Shown here piece by piece: positions 4,704 through 62,648 of a stretch of DNA of 64,000 bases. The notes beneath the pieces were generated by a model. That model made no database searches, was not told the origin of the DNA, and saw only the letters and a list, made by a program, of their open reading frames with translations. Positions within the stretch are counted from its first letter, which is position 1. Each line of letters begins with the position of its first letter. Source of the stretch: Candidatus Levybacteria bacterium GW2011_GWA1_37_16. Its GTDB lineage: Bacteria; Patescibacteriota; Microgenomatia; Levybacterales; UBA12049. The position numbers and the translations under genes were made by a program. The stretch spans positions 6,496-70,495 of the forward strand of contig CALRGR010000003.1 in the NCBI GenBank assembly GCA_943357985.1, read 5' to 3'.

Positions 4704-6143
4704 ATGAATTTAAATCAATTAACAATTGCAGAAGCAATAAAAGAACTAAAAGAAAAAAAGTTTTCCTCGATCGATATCACAAAAGCTTGCCTTGAGCAAA
4801 TTAAAAAACACAATTATGAGATTAATGCTTTTATAACAGTTGATGAAAAAGGAGCACTTGAGCAAGCAAAGATTGCAGACAAATTAGCCTCGCAAGGGGA
4901 GACCTGGGAGGCTAAACCTTTACTTGGAATTCCAATTGCCCTTAAAGATATTTTTTTGACAAAAGGGCTAAAGACTACTGCCGCCTCCAAGGTTCTGGAA
5001 AACTATATTCCACAATATGACGCAACAGTTACTAAAAAACTAAAAGATGCCGGAGCTGTAATACTCGGAAAAACAAATCTTGATGCGTGGGCACATGGTT
5101 CAAGCGGAGAGAATTCCGACTTTGGTGCGACCAAAAACCCATGGAATAAAGAATACGTTCCTGGAGGCTCTAGCAGCGGCTCTGCTGCTTCTTTGGCTGC
5201 AGACATGTGTCTTGCATCAACAGGAACCGACACAGGCGGCTCTATAAGGCTACCTGCAAGCTTCAACAATCTCGTAGGGCTAAAACCAACTTACGGCAGA
5301 GTTAGCCGTTATGGAATTATTGCCATGGCATCATCCCTTGACACAATAGGACATTTTACAAAAACAGTTGAAGACTCAGCTATTCTTTTAAACGTTACTG
5401 CAGGTTCGGACCCTCTTGATGCGACGACCCCTGGGGTTGAGCCTCAAGATTATACAAAAAGCATTGGAAAAGGAGTAAAAGGATTAAAAATTGGAGTTCC
5501 AAAAGAATACTTTACTGGGGGACTCGATAGTGCAATAAAAGACAAAGTCGAAACAGCAATAAAAAAACTCGAAGAACTTGGAGTTGAAATCGTTGAAATC
5601 TCTCTTCCAAATACTGAATACGCAGTTTCGGTTTATTACATTATTATGTCTTCCGAAGTTTCGTCTAATTTAGCAAGATACGATGGTATCCGATTTGGCA
5701 ATGATCGTTCGAGCTTTGGTGAGGAAGCGAAAAGAAGAATAATGCTGGGAACATTTACATTGTCTACAGGCTACTACGACGCTTACTACAAAAAAGCTAT
5801 GCAAGTTAGGACTTTAATAAAGCAAGACTTTGATAAAGCTTTTGAAAAAGTAGATGCAATTATTTCTCCAGTATCCCCTACGGCTCCATGGAAACTTGGA
5901 GAAAAAGTTAATGATCCGCTGAAAATGTATTTGTCTGATATTTTTACAGTCACTGCAAATTTAGCCGGAATTCCAGGACTTTCTGTCCCCGCAGGTTTTA
6001 TCCGTTCGGCGAGCTCAGGACAAGCAGAATTGCCGGTAGGTATCCAAATATTAGGACCTCAGTTTTCTGAGGAGAAACTATTTCAAATTGGAAACGCATA
6101 CGAAAAATCAACAGATTTTTATAAACAAAAACCAACATTATGA
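4704..6143 (+). CDS. gatA: Glutamyl-tRNA(Gln)/Asp-tRNA(Asn) amidotransferase subunit A (amidase signature family)
   Basis: Amidase signature GGSSSGSAAS and the Ser-cisSer-Lys context. Located between gatC and gatB. Confidence 0.9.
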   Translation: MNLNQLTIAEAIKELKEKKFSSIDITKACLEQIKKHNYEINAFITVDEKGALEQAKIADKLASQGETWEAKPLLGIPIALKDIFLTKGLKTTAASKVLENYIPQYDATVTKKLKDAGAVILGKTNLDAWAHGSSGENSDFGATKNPWNKEYVPGGSSSGSAASLAADMCLASTGTDTGGSIRLPASFNNLVGLKPTYGRVSRYGIIAMASSLDTIGHFTKTVEDSAILLNVTAGSDPLDATTPGVEPQDYTKSIGKGVKGLKIGVPKEYFTGGLDSAIKDKVETAIKKLEELGVEIVEISLPNTEYAVSVYYIIMSSEVSSNLARYDGIRFGNDRSSFGEEAKRRIMLGTFTLSTGYYDAYYKKAMQVRTLIKQDFDKAFEKVDAIISPVSPTAPWKLGEKVNDPLKMYLSDIFTVTANLAGIPGLSVPAGFIRSASSGQAELPVGIQILGPQFSEEKLFQIGNAYEKSTDFYKQKPTL

Positions 6144-24328: not shown

Positions 24329-24386
24329 TGTTGTGGATCCGAAAAAATTCGAACCTTCGACATCTGAAACCTCCCCGCCACGCTTG

Positions 24387-24458
24387 TGCACGCATCTGGA
24401 TTTGAACCAGAGACTTCTTCGATGTGAACGAAGCGCTCTACCACTGAGCTATGCGTGC
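24387..24458 (-). tRNA. tRNA-Val (anticodon CAC)
   Basis: Reverse complement folds as a cloverleaf. Acceptor GCACGCA/TGCGTGC, D-arm GCTCAGTGGTAGAGC, anticodon stem CTTCG/CGAAG with loop TTCACAT, T-arm TCTGGTTCAAATCCAGA, discriminator A. Confidence 0.85.
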
Positions 24459-24461
24459 TTT

Positions 24462-24507
24462 GGCAGGCGGGTGTGAATACAGCGCTCTACCACTGAGCTA
24501 CGAGTCC
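24462..24507 (-). pseudogene. tRNA-like 5'-half fragment (acceptor 5' strand, D-arm and part of the anticodon arm; no T-arm or 3' acceptor strand)
   Basis: Minus strand reads GGACTCGTAGCTCAGTGGTAGAGCGCTGTATTCACACCCGCCTGCC. The 20-nt D-arm block is identical to that of the adjacent tRNA-Val, and the fragment ends 3 nt before that tRNA. Confidence 0.4.
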
Positions 24508-40498: not shown

Positions 40499-41035
40499 AT
40501 GGAAGAGAAATGTCCAAAATGCGGTTCGGCCTTGTCTCCTATTACGGAGACAGCAACAGGCCGCAAGCTTCAAAGGTGCTCTAAGGGCTCTTGGAATCCC
40601 GAAACAAAACAGAATGAAGGCTGTGACTATGTATTATGGATTCAGGCAGAAGATGAAAAGCTAGATGAAAAATGCCCCAAGTGCGGAAATCCACTGGTCA
40701 TGGCGCAAACACGCTTTGGAAAGAAAATGAAAAAGTGTTCAACCAATGTCTGGAATAAAGATACAAAAAAAGCAGAGGGCTGTGACTTTATAGAATGGAT
40801 TAACGGCACAACAAAAGAACTTGATGAAGATTGTCCAGAATGCGGAAAGAAGCTTGTTCTTTATACAACCTCAACAGGAAAAAAGATGAAAAAGTGTTCA
40901 ACCAGTGGCTGGGACAGGGAAAAAAAGGTTACAACGGGCTGCACATATGTCCAATGGCTTAAACCAAGTGAGTATCAATCAAAAGACGAACCAAACGGAG
41001 AAGAGTTTTTACCCCCTGAATCCCAAGCAAACTAG
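40499..41035 (+). CDS. Stand-alone protein built from three tandem topoisomerase-type C4 zinc-ribbon modules
   Basis: Three ~58-aa repeats. Each carries CP(K/E)CG, about 15 intervening residues, then KC and GC (e.g. EKCPKCGNPLVMAQTRFGKKMKKCSTNVWNKDTKKAEGCDFIEW). This resembles the C-terminal zinc ribbons of topoisomerase I and YrdD-type proteins. Confidence 0.55.
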   Translation: MEEKCPKCGSALSPITETATGRKLQRCSKGSWNPETKQNEGCDYVLWIQAEDEKLDEKCPKCGNPLVMAQTRFGKKMKKCSTNVWNKDTKKAEGCDFIEWINGTTKELDEDCPECGKKLVLYTTSTGKKMKKCSTSGWDREKKVTTGCTYVQWLKPSEYQSKDEPNGEEFLPPESQAN

Positions 41036-41730
41036 AAAGGGATGTCTGAAGTTGTTGACTCGATACTTTCAAAGGATTTTCTATAAATGCAAAGCCTGCA
41101 CGTTTCAGACGGTTTTGGCAAATCACCATTTAGAACTTTAGAAATCTCATTAACGAATTTTAAAAATCCATCCATATCTTCCTCTATTGGATGCCATTTA
41201 GGAGATGTAGTAAATACAAATTTTCCGTCTTTATGCTCAATTGCGTCCGGTGAAACGCTAACTAGTCCGATTCTTGAAACTTTAATAGGCTTACCTTCTG
41301 CGGGATTTTCCAAAGCATATTTATAAGCATGCAGTTGACTTGAAAACTTTTTGATTTGCTCTTCATCTGGCTTTGTTATTTTAAAATCTATAACCGAGTA
41401 TGTACCATCTGCAAGTTTAGTTAAAACATCAAAACGTCCACTTATATAACAGTCTTCTGAGCCTTTTATTGGCTGGGATTTTAAAAACCCTTCCTGAATT
41501 TCAATTATTCCCTCTGGCAAATCCGGATGAATATCTTTTAAGCTTTTTCCCATAACAGAATTTTGTAAAAGACTATTCATGTGAGTAAAAATTGCAGGGA
41601 AAGCGCCGGAATGAGGAGGAATACCAAGTTTTACTTTTTGATAGAAACAAAACTTACAATCCTCCCAAAGATACTTGAAGTCGGAAGGGGATAATTTATA
41701 TTGCTTCTGTGCTTGCTCCATGAAAACCAA
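41032..41730 (-). CDS. Cas4/RecB-like PD-(D/E)XK nuclease with flanking Cys pairs
   Basis: Motif II GRFDVL, motif III IDFKITK (D-x-K), and a QLHAYKYAL (Q-x3-Y) motif. Cys pairs lie at the N-terminus (CKFC) and C-terminus (CRLC). No CRISPR array is present. Confidence 0.6.
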   Translation of the reverse strand: MVFMEQAQKQYKLSPSDFKYLWEDCKFCFYQKVKLGIPPHSGAFPAIFTHMNSLLQNSVMGKSLKDIHPDLPEGIIEIQEGFLKSQPIKGSEDCYISGRFDVLTKLADGTYSVIDFKITKPDEEQIKKFSSQLHAYKYALENPAEGKPIKVSRIGLVSVSPDAIEHKDGKFVFTTSPKWHPIEEDMDGFLKFVNEISKVLNGDLPKPSETCRLCIYRKSFESIESTTSDIPF

Positions 41731-41749
41731 TTATACCACTACTCTATCT

Positions 41750-42880
41750 CTAAAGGGGCGGCTCAAGTTCTAGGGTTTTAATTTCCGGGAGTGACTTACC
41801 TATTATTCCCTGCAAATCTCCATACATTCCATGAGTACTGTCTAAAACTTTTCTTATTTCTTTTTCCTGCCTTGCCCATTTGGAATTAAACCATCTTTTT
41901 TCTCTTTCTAATTCGTCCTGCAAATTTCCAAAACCCTCAACAACTGCCTCAACCCTATGCTTAAATTCAGTACCCGTTAAGTATTTATACAGAACCTCCA
42001 TCTTTTCATTCTTTCCCTCTCCATTTGACCTTTCATGATTTAGACTTACCAAGTTATACCGCAAAGAAAGCGCAAGTGGAACTACAAACTTCCATGTAGT
42101 TATCCAAACTCCATCTTTGTAAGTAAAAGAATCTAAGAATTCCGGCTTATTTATTGTGACAAGGATTGCCAAATCTGACTTTTTAGCTCTTTGATCTTCT
42201 TTTAATTTTGCAATCCAGCCATTTTGCCACTGAGCATTTTTAGATTCCCAAAGAATTGTCCCGCAACTTCTTCCCAATTTATCTGTCACTTCATGAACAA
42301 TATCCGCTCCCCTTTCCCCTTTTTTAACTTCAAGAATATTATCCTGTGGAAATTCACTTTTTAGAATTCTTTCGAGTTCTAACTCCATTACTTCTCCTTG
42401 TGTTTGCTGAGAGCCTTGTTCCATTTTGGTTTTAAGCTCTTCAAGTTGTTTTAGGGTATCTGTAAGTTTTTTGTCCTTTTCCAAATCTTTGAATTGATGT
42501 TCATCTTCCGACTGCTTTCTGACTTCTTTTCTAATCTTCTCCTCCTCATCCATTATTTTTTGCTTCATTTCCAATTCCCTCTCTTCATCTTTGCGTCTTA
42601 AGGCTCTCATTTCTTCAAGAAGTTTGTCTAATTTTTCCGTGAGGCTTTTATTTCTATCTTTTTCTTCTGTGTTTTCTTTTTTTAAAGTTTCGAGGGATTG
42701 CTCAAATTCTTTTCCGACTTTCTTTTTAGCGACTTCTTCTGCTGCCAATTTTGTATCTTCGAGTTCTTTTTTGTGCTTTATTTCCAGCGTGAGCAAAACT
42801 TGTTCTTCTATCTGATGAGTTAAAGCTTCCGATACTTCAATTTCTGCCCCACACTTTTTACACTTTATAACATTATTCAT
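41750..42880 (-). CDS. DUF2130/RmuC-like protein: N-terminal CxxC knuckle, long charged coiled coil, C-terminal PD-(D/E)XK-like nuclease domain
   Basis: N-terminal MNNVIKCKKCGAEIEV, then a ~200-aa E/K-rich coiled coil. The C-terminal region carries GERGADIV and ILWESKN (E-x-K) motifs. It is 19 bp upstream of, and co-oriented with, the Cas4-like gene. Confidence 0.5.
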   Translation of the reverse strand: MNNVIKCKKCGAEIEVSEALTHQIEEQVLLTLEIKHKKELEDTKLAAEEVAKKKVGKEFEQSLETLKKENTEEKDRNKSLTEKLDKLLEEMRALRRKDEERELEMKQKIMDEEEKIRKEVRKQSEDEHQFKDLEKDKKLTDTLKQLEELKTKMEQGSQQTQGEVMELELERILKSEFPQDNILEVKKGERGADIVHEVTDKLGRSCGTILWESKNAQWQNGWIAKLKEDQRAKKSDLAILVTINKPEFLDSFTYKDGVWITTWKFVVPLALSLRYNLVSLNHERSNGEGKNEKMEVLYKYLTGTEFKHRVEAVVEGFGNLQDELEREKRWFNSKWARQEKEIRKVLDSTHGMYGDLQGIIGKSLPEIKTLELEPPL

Positions 42881-43305: not shown

Positions 43306-43755
43306 ATGATACACGAAGCCCCCAAAAGAACATCAGAGCAAATTGCTGCGGGTTTAGTTGCTCAAGCACTAACAGCTCAACAAGAAGGCCTAGAAAAGGA
43401 AATTCCTGTATATCTAAAAGTTTCTATAGACTCACCCTCACTCGCTGCCAGATTTAAAGTCCCTGATATTTCAGGCAATCCTATATTGGGAGACATGCTC
43501 GATAGATTGTTAGTTGTAAATGACGATTTCTCAGTGTCATACGTGACTGGTTTTAATTCTTACGATGGCCATAAATATGAGCACTGGATAACTCCTTCCA
43601 AAAGATATCCAGGATTATTTACTATTACTGAATTCGCGATGAAAGGTAGACAAAGAGTAGCCGAAAGAGTTGGTATTTTAGTCAGCGGGACTAATTTAAT
43701 AGAATTTCAAAATTGGTCACATTTTTTCTACAACGTTATTCAGAAGGAAGCCTAA
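43306..43755 (+). CDS. Hypothetical protein (149 aa, soluble, no recognisable motifs)
   Basis: ORF with a plausible upstream promoter. It is the last gene of the accessory segment before glmS. Confidence 0.4.
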   Translation: MIHEAPKRTSEQIAAGLVAQALTAQQEGLEKEIPVYLKVSIDSPSLAARFKVPDISGNPILGDMLDRLLVVNDDFSVSYVTGFNSYDGHKYEHWITPSKRYPGLFTITEFAMKGRQRVAERVGILVSGTNLIEFQNWSHFFYNVIQKEA

Positions 43756-52574: not shown

Positions 52575-53618
52575 ATGAGCCCGCTTGATGAAAATCAACT
52601 TCAGATTGAGATTAAAAAAGAGGGACTGCGCCATATTACGGATGAAATACCCGGCTTTATGAGGCAAAAACTTGGTATAAACTTCACTTATTATGACGAG
52701 GATCTCAAAAGAATAAAAGATAAAGTCGTAATTAGCCGGATTGAGAGCTTAGCAATTCCGCCAGCCTGGAAAAAAGTCTGGATTTGTGCTTCAGAAAACG
52801 GATATCTTCAAGCAACAGGCACTGATGACAAAAGACGTAAACAGTATATTTATCATCCGGAATGGGTAAAAGCAACTCAAACAAGCAAATTTGAAAGACT
52901 GACGGATTTTGGCCTCAGCCTTCCAATAATCCGCTCGAAAATCGATTATGACCTGCACCAAAAAGACATGGATAAGAAAAGAATCCTAGCTACTGTCGTT
53001 TGGTTGCTTGAGAAAACTTTTATCCGCATTGGAAATGAAGAATACGCAAGAAATAATGAAAGCTTCGGGCTAACAACTTTAAGAAACCGTCACGCAAAAG
53101 TAAGAGGAGACCAAATTTCATTTAAATTCATAGGGAAAAGCGGTATTGAGAATGTAATCGAAATATCAAACCCAACAATTGCCAAAACAATCAGAAAATG
53201 TATTGAACTTCCGGGCTACGAGCTTTTTCAATTTATAGATGATAGCGGAGAGCGTCATGTAATTGATTCTGCGGATGTTAACGAATTTTTGAAAGAAATA
53301 ACTAAAAATGAATTTACTACAAAAGATTTTAGAACTTGGGGAGCAACCAATTTATCAGCAAGACACCTTTATAAATTAGGAGGCGCGGAGAGTGAGAAGA
53401 CGATCAAGCAAAATATTATGGACACCATCAAGGAAGTCGCAAGTCAGCTTAACAATACCGTATCGGTTTGTAGAAATTATTACATTCATCCGCAAGTTTT
53501 GAAGAGCTACGTCAAAAAGACTCTAGTTCCCCACTTTGCAGGTTTTGAAAAATCCAGAAAATCAATAAAAGGACTCTCCTGGAACGAAACCGCCCTAATC
53601 AAACTCCTACAAAATTAG
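52575..53618 (+). CDS. Type IB DNA topoisomerase (bacterial/poxvirus-type TopIB)
   Basis: Conserved blocks GLTTLRNRH, KDFRTWGAT and the catalytic Tyr context SVCRNYYIHP. Confidence 0.8.
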   Translation: MSPLDENQLQIEIKKEGLRHITDEIPGFMRQKLGINFTYYDEDLKRIKDKVVISRIESLAIPPAWKKVWICASENGYLQATGTDDKRRKQYIYHPEWVKATQTSKFERLTDFGLSLPIIRSKIDYDLHQKDMDKKRILATVVWLLEKTFIRIGNEEYARNNESFGLTTLRNRHAKVRGDQISFKFIGKSGIENVIEISNPTIAKTIRKCIELPGYELFQFIDDSGERHVIDSADVNEFLKEITKNEFTTKDFRTWGATNLSARHLYKLGGAESEKTIKQNIMDTIKEVASQLNNTVSVCRNYYIHPQVLKSYVKKTLVPHFAGFEKSRKSIKGLSWNETALIKLLQN

Positions 53619-53642: not shown

Positions 53643-54344
53643 ATGGGAACAATGAGAGATTTTAATAGAGGCGGTAACTCGAGACCAAGACGAAGCTATG
53701 ATAATAGAGGATCTTCTGGTGGAAACGAAGAAAGACAAACATTTAAAGCAATATGCGCAGATTGTGGCCGCGACTGTGACCTTCCATTTGAACCCCGTGG
53801 CAACAGACCAGTATATTGCAGAGATTGTTTCAAAAAGCATACACCGGAAGGCTCAAGCGGAGATAGATATGAATCAAGAGGAGATTCCAGAGGGGGTCCA
53901 CGTGAAGATTCAAGGCGATCAGGTGGCGATAGACCAATGTTTAGCGCAGTATGCGACAACTGCGGCAAAACTTGCCAGCTTCCCTTTGAACCAAGACAGG
54001 GAAAAGAAGTTTTCTGCAGTAGATGTTTTGAAGATAAAGAAAAAGGAATAGACATGACGCAAAGAAAAAGCAATAGCAATGGCACGCAAGCACAATCACA
54101 ACCAAACCTTCAAATGGACGCAATAAATGCAAAGCTTGATAAAATATTAAATCTTTTATCCAACACAAAAGCATTAAAAAATGACGAGAAAGCTTCCAAA
54201 GTAGTAGAAGATGAGATAGAACAACTAGTAAAAACAATTAAAGCTGAAAAATCAATCAAACCTAAAAAGAAAGTCAAAGATCCTGAGCAAAGCCGAAGCG
54301 TAGCAGCAGAAACAGAAATTCCAATAGAATCCCCAACGGAATAG
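53643..54344 (+). CDS. RGG/Arg-Gly-rich protein with two repeated CxxC...CxxC zinc-ribbon modules and a lysine-rich C-terminal coiled coil
   Basis: Duplicated module: CADCGRDCDLPFEPRGNRPVYCRDCF and CDNCGKTCQLPFEPRQGKEVFCSRCF. The region is locally GC-rich because of GGN/CGN codons, which produces many spurious overlapping ORFs on both strands. Confidence 0.5.
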   Translation: MGTMRDFNRGGNSRPRRSYDNRGSSGGNEERQTFKAICADCGRDCDLPFEPRGNRPVYCRDCFKKHTPEGSSGDRYESRGDSRGGPREDSRRSGGDRPMFSAVCDNCGKTCQLPFEPRQGKEVFCSRCFEDKEKGIDMTQRKSNSNGTQAQSQPNLQMDAINAKLDKILNLLSNTKALKNDEKASKVVEDEIEQLVKTIKAEKSIKPKKKVKDPEQSRSVAAETEIPIESPTE

Positions 54345-62114: not shown

Positions 62115-62648
62115 TTAGTCAAAAAAAGGAAACATTCTCCTTGTCTTAAGACGTCTTTCAAGTATTTCTTCAATTAGCCCCTGTGTATTTACCAAATGCG
62201 TCTGGTGCGAAAAGCCCAAAGCGCTAAGAAGCTGCTTTTCAAAAGCAGAAATTAAAACTACATGATCTTCTCTGCTTTCTAGCTTTGACAAAACATCGCA
62301 AAGAAGAGAGAAAACTTGCGAGTTTTCCTGATTTTCTGCACAAAGACTATCTACGAGTTCACAAATATGATACGCAAAACCAACACTTTTAAGATTATCT
62401 TTAACACTTGAAAAGTTATCTATAGTTTCTACTTCTGTGAGCGTAGACATTGAACGGCCTTTATAAAGAGACAAAGAAACCAAGTTTAAAAGTTCTATAT
62501 GACCGGATCTTCTGCTTGAAATTTTCCTGACTCCTTTTGCCTGTATGGTAATTTTTCCGTGGTGTTTTGTGAAAACTGTCAAAAGCCTGTCTGCTTCTCC
62601 TATGTTTCTTCTTCTTATTACAACTCCTGTTGTTTTATAACTTCTCAT
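62115..62648 (-). CDS. recO: DNA repair protein RecO (short form)
   Basis: N-terminal OB-fold region (VVIRRRNIGEADRLLTVFTKHHGKI) and Cys residues in the C-terminal half. Confidence 0.65.
   Translation of the reverse strand: MRSYKTTGVVIRRRNIGEADRLLTVFTKHHGKITIQAKGVRKISSRRSGHIELLNLVSLSLYKGRSMSTLTEVETIDNFSSVKDNLKSVGFAYHICELVDSLCAENQENSQVFSLLCDVLSKLESREDHVVLISAFEKQLLSALGFSHQTHLVNTQGLIEEILERRLKTRRMFPFFD

Follow-up and report, generated by a model that had tools for sequence, protein, structure and literature searches.

A stand-alone Cas4-like nuclease of Levybacteria with two terminal cysteine pairs and a C-terminus resembling the SSB tip

The 64,000-nucleotide (nt) stretch of the Candidatus Levybacteria bacterium GW2011_GWA1_37_16 genome considered here (contig CALRGR010000003.1, positions 6,496 to 70,495 of the forward strand; the whole stretch is referred to as the window) encodes on its minus strand a small nuclease of the RecB/Cas4-like PD-(D/E)XK type that stands apart from any CRISPR system. 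The reading that we prefer, at a probability of roughly 0.55, is that this protein is a housekeeping nuclease for the ends of single-stranded DNA (ssDNA), that four cysteines would form a metal-binding staple between its two termini, and that its C-terminal tail would dock into the pockets with which repair proteins bind the tip of the ssDNA-binding protein (SSB). The parts of this reading are not equally secure. That the protein is a DNA nuclease with a structural metal site built from four cysteines is, judged from conserved residues and a predicted structure, very probable. A role in housekeeping repair and not in defence is slightly favoured, and the interpretation of the tail as a mimic of the SSB tip, drawn from its sequence, is tentative.

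The mechanical open reading frame (ORF) of the nuclease occupies positions 41032 to 41730 on the minus strand and has 232 amino acids (aa) counted from a TTG at 41730, with an ATG three codons further in at 41721. This ATG is the likely translation start, because the database protein P0001, which is 100% identical and covers 99% of the ORF, has 229 aa, and gene calls on other contigs likewise give a 229-aa product. The ORF is a genuine, conserved gene. Residues are numbered below from the ATG, i.e., as the numbers in the 232-aa ORF minus 3.

41032–41721, minus strand: nuclease coding sequence, 229 aa from the ATG at 41721, with the stop codon at 41032–41034.
41730–41738, minus strand: extended -10-like element TGgTATAAT, found by direct reading of the sequence and ending 8 nt upstream of the nuclease ATG.

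There is no Shine-Dalgarno sequence before the nuclease ATG, and the element at 41730–41738 was not among the sites listed by a consensus promoter scan. Because TGgTATAAT lies 8 nt before the ATG and a Shine-Dalgarno sequence is lacking, the sequence suggests that the gene is transcribed from a promoter of its own into an mRNA with no leader or hardly any.

In a preliminary description of this DNA the ORF was taken to encode a Cas4/RecB-like PD-(D/E)XK nuclease, and this assignment is borne out by family models as well as by the predicted structure. The protein matches PF12705 (PDDEXK_1) in Pfam with E=4.5e-9 and 37 bits, where the gathering cut-off is 22, and the same model is matched by 60 of 64 diverse family members. 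Models specific to Cas4 are approached and not reached. The score against the Cas4 equivalog TIGR00372 is 29.1 bits, which is below the cut-off of 65, PF01930 (Cas4) gives no match for the query and is matched by two of the 64 relatives at E about 0.006, and the Cas4 models of PADLOC give weak matches to single protein models (best E=2e-8). These scores place the protein as Cas4-like and outside Cas4 proper. When the PDB was searched by sequence with this one protein as query, noise only was returned, and the profile A1 gave a marginal match to ACE1 (E=0.35). The family profile found Cas4 SSO0001 (4ic1) with a whole-sequence E of 8e-4, and also ACE1 and AdnB, over the core of GxxD, DxK and QxxxY. 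The broad alignment A2 was too divergent to serve in the genome scan, and a match of its profile to PvuII, being limited to the N-terminal 44 residues, was treated as chance.

The AlphaFold2 model, made from an alignment of 31 sequences, is a single domain with a predicted local distance difference test (pLDDT) of 84 and a predicted template modelling score (pTM) of 0.81. It has a restriction-endonuclease-like alpha/beta fold that resembles solved members of the RecB family. The best Foldseek matches among solved structures were Cas4 SSO0001 (4ic1), the nuclease domain of AdnA, human Exo5, MGME1, ACE1 and RecE, with E-values from 1e-5 to 1e-3, and the Foldseek probability was 1.00 for 4ic1, 9np6, 7lw9 and 8xa9 at TM-scores of 0.45–0.52. 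In a library of viral structures 117 matches were obtained at E<=0.001, the best being AFV1 ORF223 and PD-(D/E)XK or RecB-like nucleases of phages. A profile search of 1.84 billion cluster representatives yielded 858 relatives at E<=1e-3, 552 of them at E<=1e-10. On sequence and predicted structure together, the nuclease is assigned to a distant and separate family of RecB/Cas4-like PD-(D/E)XK enzymes under the umbrella of PF12705 and outside Cas4 proper.

Conservation along the protein was assessed in two sets, a wide one of 114 full-length sequences (the query and representatives of 50%-identity clusters) and one of close relatives (120 listed homologs and the query). The features concerned are the following.

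41323–41439, minus strand: catalytic core with RecB-type motifs G95-R-F-D98, D112-F-K114 and Q129-LHA-Y133.
41647–41658, minus strand: N-terminal CxxC, C22-K-F-C25, at the start of helix 23–32 of the model; proposed first half of the metal staple.
41089–41100, minus strand: C-terminal CxxC, C208-R-L-C211, at the start of helix 209–215 of the model; proposed second half of the staple.
41449–41451, minus strand: middle cysteine, C91 (C94 when counted from the TTG), which precedes the GRFD strand by four residues.

All motifs that the preliminary description had read from the ORF at 41032–41730 are present. In the numbering of the 232-aa ORF these are CKFC with C25/C28, a middle cysteine C94, GRFDVL with D101, IDFKITK with D115/K117, QLHAYKYAL with Q132/Y136, and CRLC with C211/C214. 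By alignment, GRFDVL, IDFKITK and QLHAYKYAL are the conserved catalytic motifs GxxD, DxK and QxxxY. The catalytic D, the DxK and the QxxxY are 96–100% conserved in the 114 sequences, with G95, D98 and D112 at 99% each, K114 at 100%, and Q129 and Y133 at 98%. This core aligns to GRADAI, IEIKTS and QLQIY of Cas4 SSO0001 (PDB 4ic1), and also to ACE1 and AdnB.

The cysteines had been described as a 2+1+2 arrangement, of which the terminal pairs stand and the middle cysteine does not. In the wide set C22 and C25 are conserved at 96% each, C208 at 98% and C211 at 96%. In the set of close relatives C22 and C25 are conserved at 97–98%, and the four terminal cysteines as a whole at 97–99%. The middle cysteine is found in 88% of the close relatives but in 22% of the wider family. 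As the terminal cysteines are conserved at 96–98% and the middle one at 22%, the signature of the family is 2+2 (CX2C...CX2C). On the alignments the middle cysteine is a lineage feature of the Microgenomates branch that lies outside the family signature, and it is probably not a metal ligand. A role as a fifth ligand was rejected on account of its 22% conservation in the wider family.

It was also noted beforehand that this layout is unlike that of Cas4, and this is upheld. In the canonical pattern of Cas4, AddB, AdnAB and ACE1 one N-terminal cysteine and three C-terminal ones (C...CX2CX5C) hold an iron–sulfur (Fe-S) "iron staple" (PMC12094033; PMC5704561). The nuclease has CX2C...CX2C where Cas4 has one plus three (PMC12094033), and so departs from the 1+3 pattern. 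Its C-terminal CxxC is aligned to CKYC in SSO0001 and to CRYC in ACE1, i.e., with the first two of the three canonical cysteines, in segments that carry no score on their own, and the site of the canonical third cysteine (CX2CX5C), six residues after C211, is taken by F217, which is conserved at 90% or more in close relatives. The second N-terminal cysteine has presumably taken over the role of the lost third C-terminal one. The spacing CX2C...CX2C is compatible with Zn(Cys)4 coordination as well as with an Fe-S cluster. Four distant members of the wider family (P0136, P0150, P0176 and P0178) have, besides the N-terminal CxxC, a C-terminal CX2CX2CX5C and a further cysteine-rich extension, and may, from their sequences, carry a second metal site.

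After the helix of the C-terminal CxxC the aligned sequences turn variable and then close in a conserved tip, which in the query reads ...ESTTSDIPF.

41035–41076, minus strand, with the tip at 41035–41046: C-terminal linker and tip S-D-I-P-F-COOH, predicted to be disordered; an SSB-tip look-alike.
62115–62648, minus strand: short RecO, 177 aa, with RecO_N and part of RecO_C; a classical SSB-tip binder encoded in the same window.

An [ILMV]PF ending is present on 134 of 196 distinct C-termini of the family. Since the 134 sequences were picked by this ending, their P and F are invariant by selection. At the remaining positions of the tip there is I or L at -3 in 96% of the 134, D or E at -4 in 86% and D or E at -5 in 73%. 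From -10 to -6 no residue exceeds 25%. The CxxC mostly lies 18–19 residues from the end, the tail is kept down to about 42% overall identity, and its pLDDT of about 50 in the AlphaFold2 model is as expected for a disordered peptide. The C-terminal tip of SSB is DFDDDIPF, of which the distal DIPF is bound in crystal structures of ExoI and RecO, and it is highly conserved among eubacteria (PMC10143822). The tail of the nuclease has the make-up of such a motif, i.e., two acidic positions followed by (I/L)-P-F at the extreme C-terminus after a disordered linker, and the tip of the query is identical to DIPF, the bound part of the SSB C-terminal tip (SSB-Ct). A similar ending was seen on just one other ORF in the loci examined. 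A search of 0.9 Mb of sequence, comprising the loci and the window, turned up no SSB gene.

Relatives of the nuclease were found in at least 149 species genomes in a scan of one genome per species. Where the lineages are named they are mostly Microgenomates, i.e., Levy-, Davies-, Woese-, Gottesman-, Curtiss-, Ames- and Chisholmbacteria; placeholder names are common among the metagenome-assembled genomes (MAGs) in the scan. Identities range from 42% to 86% and the architecture is the same throughout. This common architecture across the Microgenomates, which belong to the candidate phyla radiation (CPR), suggests from sequence that the nuclease has been inherited vertically there. The wider 2+2 family also occurs in one Actinomycetota MAG.

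The absence of a link to CRISPR, which the preliminary description had put forward, is confirmed. No CRISPR-like array was detected by TRF in the 64 kb, a search for direct repeats in the same stretch returned just a 34-nt duplicate related to a tRNA, and an Rfam scan of it found two tRNAs and nothing else. No cas gene was present among the 35 ORFs of the window that were scanned against Pfam. With the array absent and the Pfam matches of these 35 ORFs confined to housekeeping genes, a CRISPR link was ruled out. The duplicate (24472–24505) is an 85%-identical partial copy of the adjoining tRNA-Val (24386–24458, minus strand) that neither ARAGORN nor Rfam regards as a tRNA, and is perhaps a piece of a tRNA or the scar of an old integration.

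The core genes recognised in the window by Pfam are those for MurT/GatD, GatA, GatB, DnaE, the F-type ATP synthase operon, glycosyltransferases, ParB, RodA, IleRS, MraZ, MraW, a penicillin-binding protein, Mur ligases, type IB topoisomerase (TopIB) and RecO, and FtsZ, FtsA, MurG, FtsW, MraY, GlmS and GlmU are annotated on the identical contig L088. Local GC content varies between 0.33 and 0.42 without a step at the nuclease gene, and this flat profile ruled out a horizontal island. The nuclease gene sits in core chromosome of native composition. It belongs to a block of four genes, encoding a 149-aa ORF product, a DUF2130 protein, the nuclease and a zinc-ribbon protein, between GlmS and the MraY end of the dcw cluster. 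Its immediate neighbours are the following.

41750–42880, minus strand: DUF2130 protein, 376 aa, upstream, with 28 nt from its stop codon to the nuclease ATG.
40499–41035, plus strand: zinc-ribbon protein, 178 aa, with three tandem Top1-type C4 zinc ribbons and an acidic tail, convergent with the nuclease gene and overlapping it by 4 nt.

In the DUF2130 protein, which gives a weak LmuB-like match in PADLOC, a CxxC knuckle at the N-terminus is combined with a long and charged coiled coil and with a C-terminal domain that carries a PD-ExK-like "GADIVHEV...ILWESKN", by which the protein is possibly a second nuclease. It lies beside the nuclease in none of 84 other loci. Homologs of the zinc-ribbon protein with 66–71% identity occur about 3 kb from the nuclease in two of these 84 loci (L019 and L081), and the protein is possibly a small ssDNA-binding protein. 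For the 149-aa ORF (43306–43755, plus strand), which lies between GlmS and the DUF2130 gene, searches of Pfam, NCBIfam, PHROGs and PADLOC gave no match, and the ORF is absent from the other loci.

When all genes within 3.5 kb of the nuclease were clustered all against all in 85 loci, no family of neighbours was found in more than eight of them, and no helicase gene recurred beside the nuclease. The loci inspected one by one have unrelated genes beside the nuclease, and the surroundings differ even for the homolog at 84% identity. A conserved operon was ruled out by this clustering and by the window's own neighbours being missing elsewhere, and no housekeeping RecB-family exonuclease in a conserved genomic context, the outcome that would have spoken against the preliminary description, was found. 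At 11 kb from the nuclease the window holds a TopIB gene (52575–53618, plus strand) followed by one for an arginine/glycine-rich protein with two zf_Tbcl_2 zinc fingers (53643–54344, plus strand). The two genes were also noted at L005, L011, L025, L030, L032 and L070, and in some relatives the nuclease gene is found between or right beside both on the opposite strand. TopIB is 0.1–0.5 kb from the nuclease in three loci and the zinc-finger protein at most 2.3 kb upstream in eight. The association is weak synteny and does not amount to an operon.

The following mode of action is proposed for this protein. The two CxxC pairs would hold one metal centre, either Fe-S or Zn(Cys)4, which fastens the N-terminal segment to the C-terminal one in place of the 1+3 "iron staple". 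In its predicted fold the enzyme comes nearest to those nucleases through which ssDNA ends are threaded (Cas4 SSO0001, AdnA, Exo5 and MGME1), and it would cut ssDNA ends or flaps with Mg or Mn, probably in the 5'->3' direction, in replication-associated repair or recombination. In this way it could stand in, as a housekeeping enzyme, for the nuclease modules that larger helicase-nucleases contain. By its tail the nuclease would be docked into SSB-tip pockets on genome-maintenance proteins, and the RecO encoded at 62115–62648 is one candidate partner. Docking would either bring the nuclease to ssDNA handled by SSB or pass its product on to recombination mediators, and could couple the processing of ends and gaps to the next repair step in a genome with few repair proteins. 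A more ambitious version, suggested by the tail and the cysteine layout, has the nuclease plugged into RecO or other SSB-tip pockets and coupling resection to RecA loading in bacteria with minimal genomes, as a two-piece functional analogue of AddAB/RecBCD, possibly with zinc in the 2+2 staple; this version is rather doubtful.

Several observations weigh against the preferred reading. The tail is absent in about a third of the family, including the Daviesbacteria and several other clades, and the core function can therefore do without it. That the tip matches the SSB of the lineage itself is assumed. Members of the wider family are encoded on huge-phage-like contigs, namely at 6001–6714 of L086 (297 kb) and at 4986–5699 of L091 (IMG/VR, 441 kb), and some loci adjoin restriction-modification (R-M) or toxin-antitoxin genes. 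Because of these neighbours and of the huge-phage-like contigs, a role in defence or in a mobile element is conceivable.

A nuclease of defence would be a solo Cas4-like enzyme that degrades or processes invading DNA, perhaps together with R-M or other immune genes, a role that has been put forward for the solo Cas4 of small-genome archaea. The weak matches to Cas4 models would fit this, as would one relative that adjoins a type I R-M system, RusA and toxin-antitoxin pairs, the weak LmuB-like match of the upstream DUF2130 coiled-coil protein in the window, and the roles in defence or repair that passages of an earlier survey suggest for solo Cas4 in CPR and DPANN (PMC5704561). However, no neighbour is shared by more than eight of the 85 loci, the DUF2130 gene does not adjoin the nuclease in any of the 84 others, the PADLOC matches are weak and concern individual Cas4 and LmuB protein models, the gene resides in core chromosome of native composition, and the same architecture across the Microgenomates suggests vertical inheritance, so that a defence role is unlikely. 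The gene might instead be a remnant or domesticated recombination exonuclease of a phage or other mobile element, of the RecE/lambda-Exo/Cas4-like kind that is normally partnered with a single-strand annealing protein. The wider 2+2 family does reach the huge-phage-like contigs L086 and L091, where the copies are without an IPF tail and lie among many small unannotated ORFs on the same strand, there are weak matches to PHROG "exonuclease" families, and phage nucleases of the PD-(D/E)XK or RecB-like type account for many of the 117 matches in the library of viral structures. Against such an origin, no annealase, integrase or other phage gene surrounds the nuclease in the window or in the other Microgenomates loci inspected, tblastn with three family members found no match in 50,697 genomes of isolated phages, the composition is native and the gene is conserved across whole candidate phyla. 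We regard this origin as improbable.

A different set of explanations concerns the tail only, which might be another short linear motif, i.e., a beta-clamp hexapeptide (QxxLxF-like), a DIPxF like that of the FtsZ tail, or an autoinhibitory acidic tail lying on the DNA-binding groove. Of the 134 sequences with a tail, 29 carry Q at -6, giving Q-E/D-D/E-I-P-F as in the "QEDIPF" of Woesebacteria, the gene is in the window placed inside a cell-division cluster near FtsA and FtsZ, and acidic tails are able to compete with DNA. Yet the Q at -6 is a minority feature, the beta-clamp pentapeptide consensus QL[SD]LF does not match, the adjacency to division genes is not conserved, and a conserved acidic pair with I/L-P-F at the very C-terminus is the signature of SSB-Ct. 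From sequence the beta-clamp and FtsZ-tail readings are ranked below the SSB-tip reading, and another meaning of the tail is, as a whole, quite unlikely. All of these explanations fit the conservation pattern and the absence of fixed neighbours less well than does a housekeeping nuclease with an SSB-like tip.

Stand-alone Cas4-like genes in CPR genomes are a known category. As far as our searches reach, the 2+2 site and the SSB-like tip are unreported, and within the literature searched no report was located of an SSB tip on a nuclease or of a Cas4-like site with 2+2 cysteines. Solo Cas4-like nucleases are over-represented in those bacteria and archaea whose genomes are small and free of CRISPR, and what they do has been a question since at least 2017 (PMC5704561). 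The 2+2 layout probes how essential the geometry of the "iron staple", and iron itself, is for the fold, and the tip predicts partners, namely proteins with an SSB-tip pocket such as RecO, and therefore a pathway. If the tail is indeed an SSB mimic, an enzyme other than SSB would be using the very currency of the SSB interaction hub, which would matter for DNA repair in minimal genomes, and if it docks the nuclease it would give a first mechanistic handle on solo Cas4-like nucleases in CPR and DPANN. If the tail works otherwise, the gene is one more uncharacterised PDDEXK_1 nuclease.

Among known systems, human Exo5 and MGME1 are, like the nuclease, single-domain enzymes among its top structural matches, and they thread ssDNA ends; they differ in being eukaryotic and mitochondrial enzymes and in sharing 11–16% identity with it. 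The Fe-S site of Exo5 is of the 1+3 type, and MGME1 is not known to contain a cluster. The nuclease domains of AddB, AdnA and AdnB share the catalytic motifs and are strong structural matches, and their Cys4 site pins N- and C-terminal parts as is proposed for the nuclease. They are, in contrast, domains of 1000-aa helicase-nuclease subunits with 1+3 cysteines, whereas the protein described here is a free-standing single domain of 229 aa that is not fused to a superfamily 1 helicase of the AddB/RecB/AdnAB type. Any meeting with a helicase or a mediator would take place in trans, possibly by way of the tail. The largest branch of PF12705 is likewise fused to UvrD-like helicases, unlike the nuclease.

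Cas4 proper (COG1468/PF01930/TIGR00372; SSO0001, 4IC1) has the same RecB-type core of GxxD, DxK and QxxxY, a similar length of about 200–230 aa and a cysteine-ligated metal site joining the N- and C-terminal segments, a feature that in the nuclease is deduced from sequence. SSO0001 is both the best structural match and the best relevant profile match. The nuclease nevertheless scores far below the Cas4 models, has 2+2 and not 1+3 cysteines, ends in an SSB-like tail and lacks cas1/cas2 or CRISPR surroundings, its adjoining genes being those for DUF2130, the zinc-ribbon protein, MraY and GlmS. Solo Cas4-like genes in small CPR genomes without CRISPR, evolving mainly vertically, have already been described, as sections of the survey relate (Hudaiberdiev et al. 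2017, PMC5704561). The PF12705 members among them, as presented in those sections, resemble the nuclease in being stand-alone, in having a CPR host with a small genome and in their apparent vertical inheritance (PMC5704561). The same source states, in the part concerned, that every member of the Cas4 family has a four-cysteine Fe-S module, and the portions of its text covered by a term search mention neither a 2+2 layout nor an SSB-like tip (PMC5704561). ACE1, an Argonaute-associated Cas4 family enzyme (PDB 9IAB/9IAC), is likewise a stand-alone ssDNA nuclease outside CRISPR whose core aligns with that of the nuclease and whose C-terminal CxxC lines up with it. ACE1 binds Fe4S4 through 1+3 cysteines and is co-encoded with a prokaryotic Argonaute (PMC12094033), whereas the nuclease has no Argonaute or other fixed partner and a 2+2 set of cysteines. 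With SSB-Ct (DFDDDIPF), finally, the nuclease has in common that its chain closes at the extreme C-terminus in acidic residues and then I/L-P-F, the linker before them being disordered and little conserved. The difference is that the tail is here carried by a nuclease and not by an ssDNA-binding domain of the oligonucleotide/oligosaccharide-binding (OB) fold, at the end of a linker of about 10 residues.

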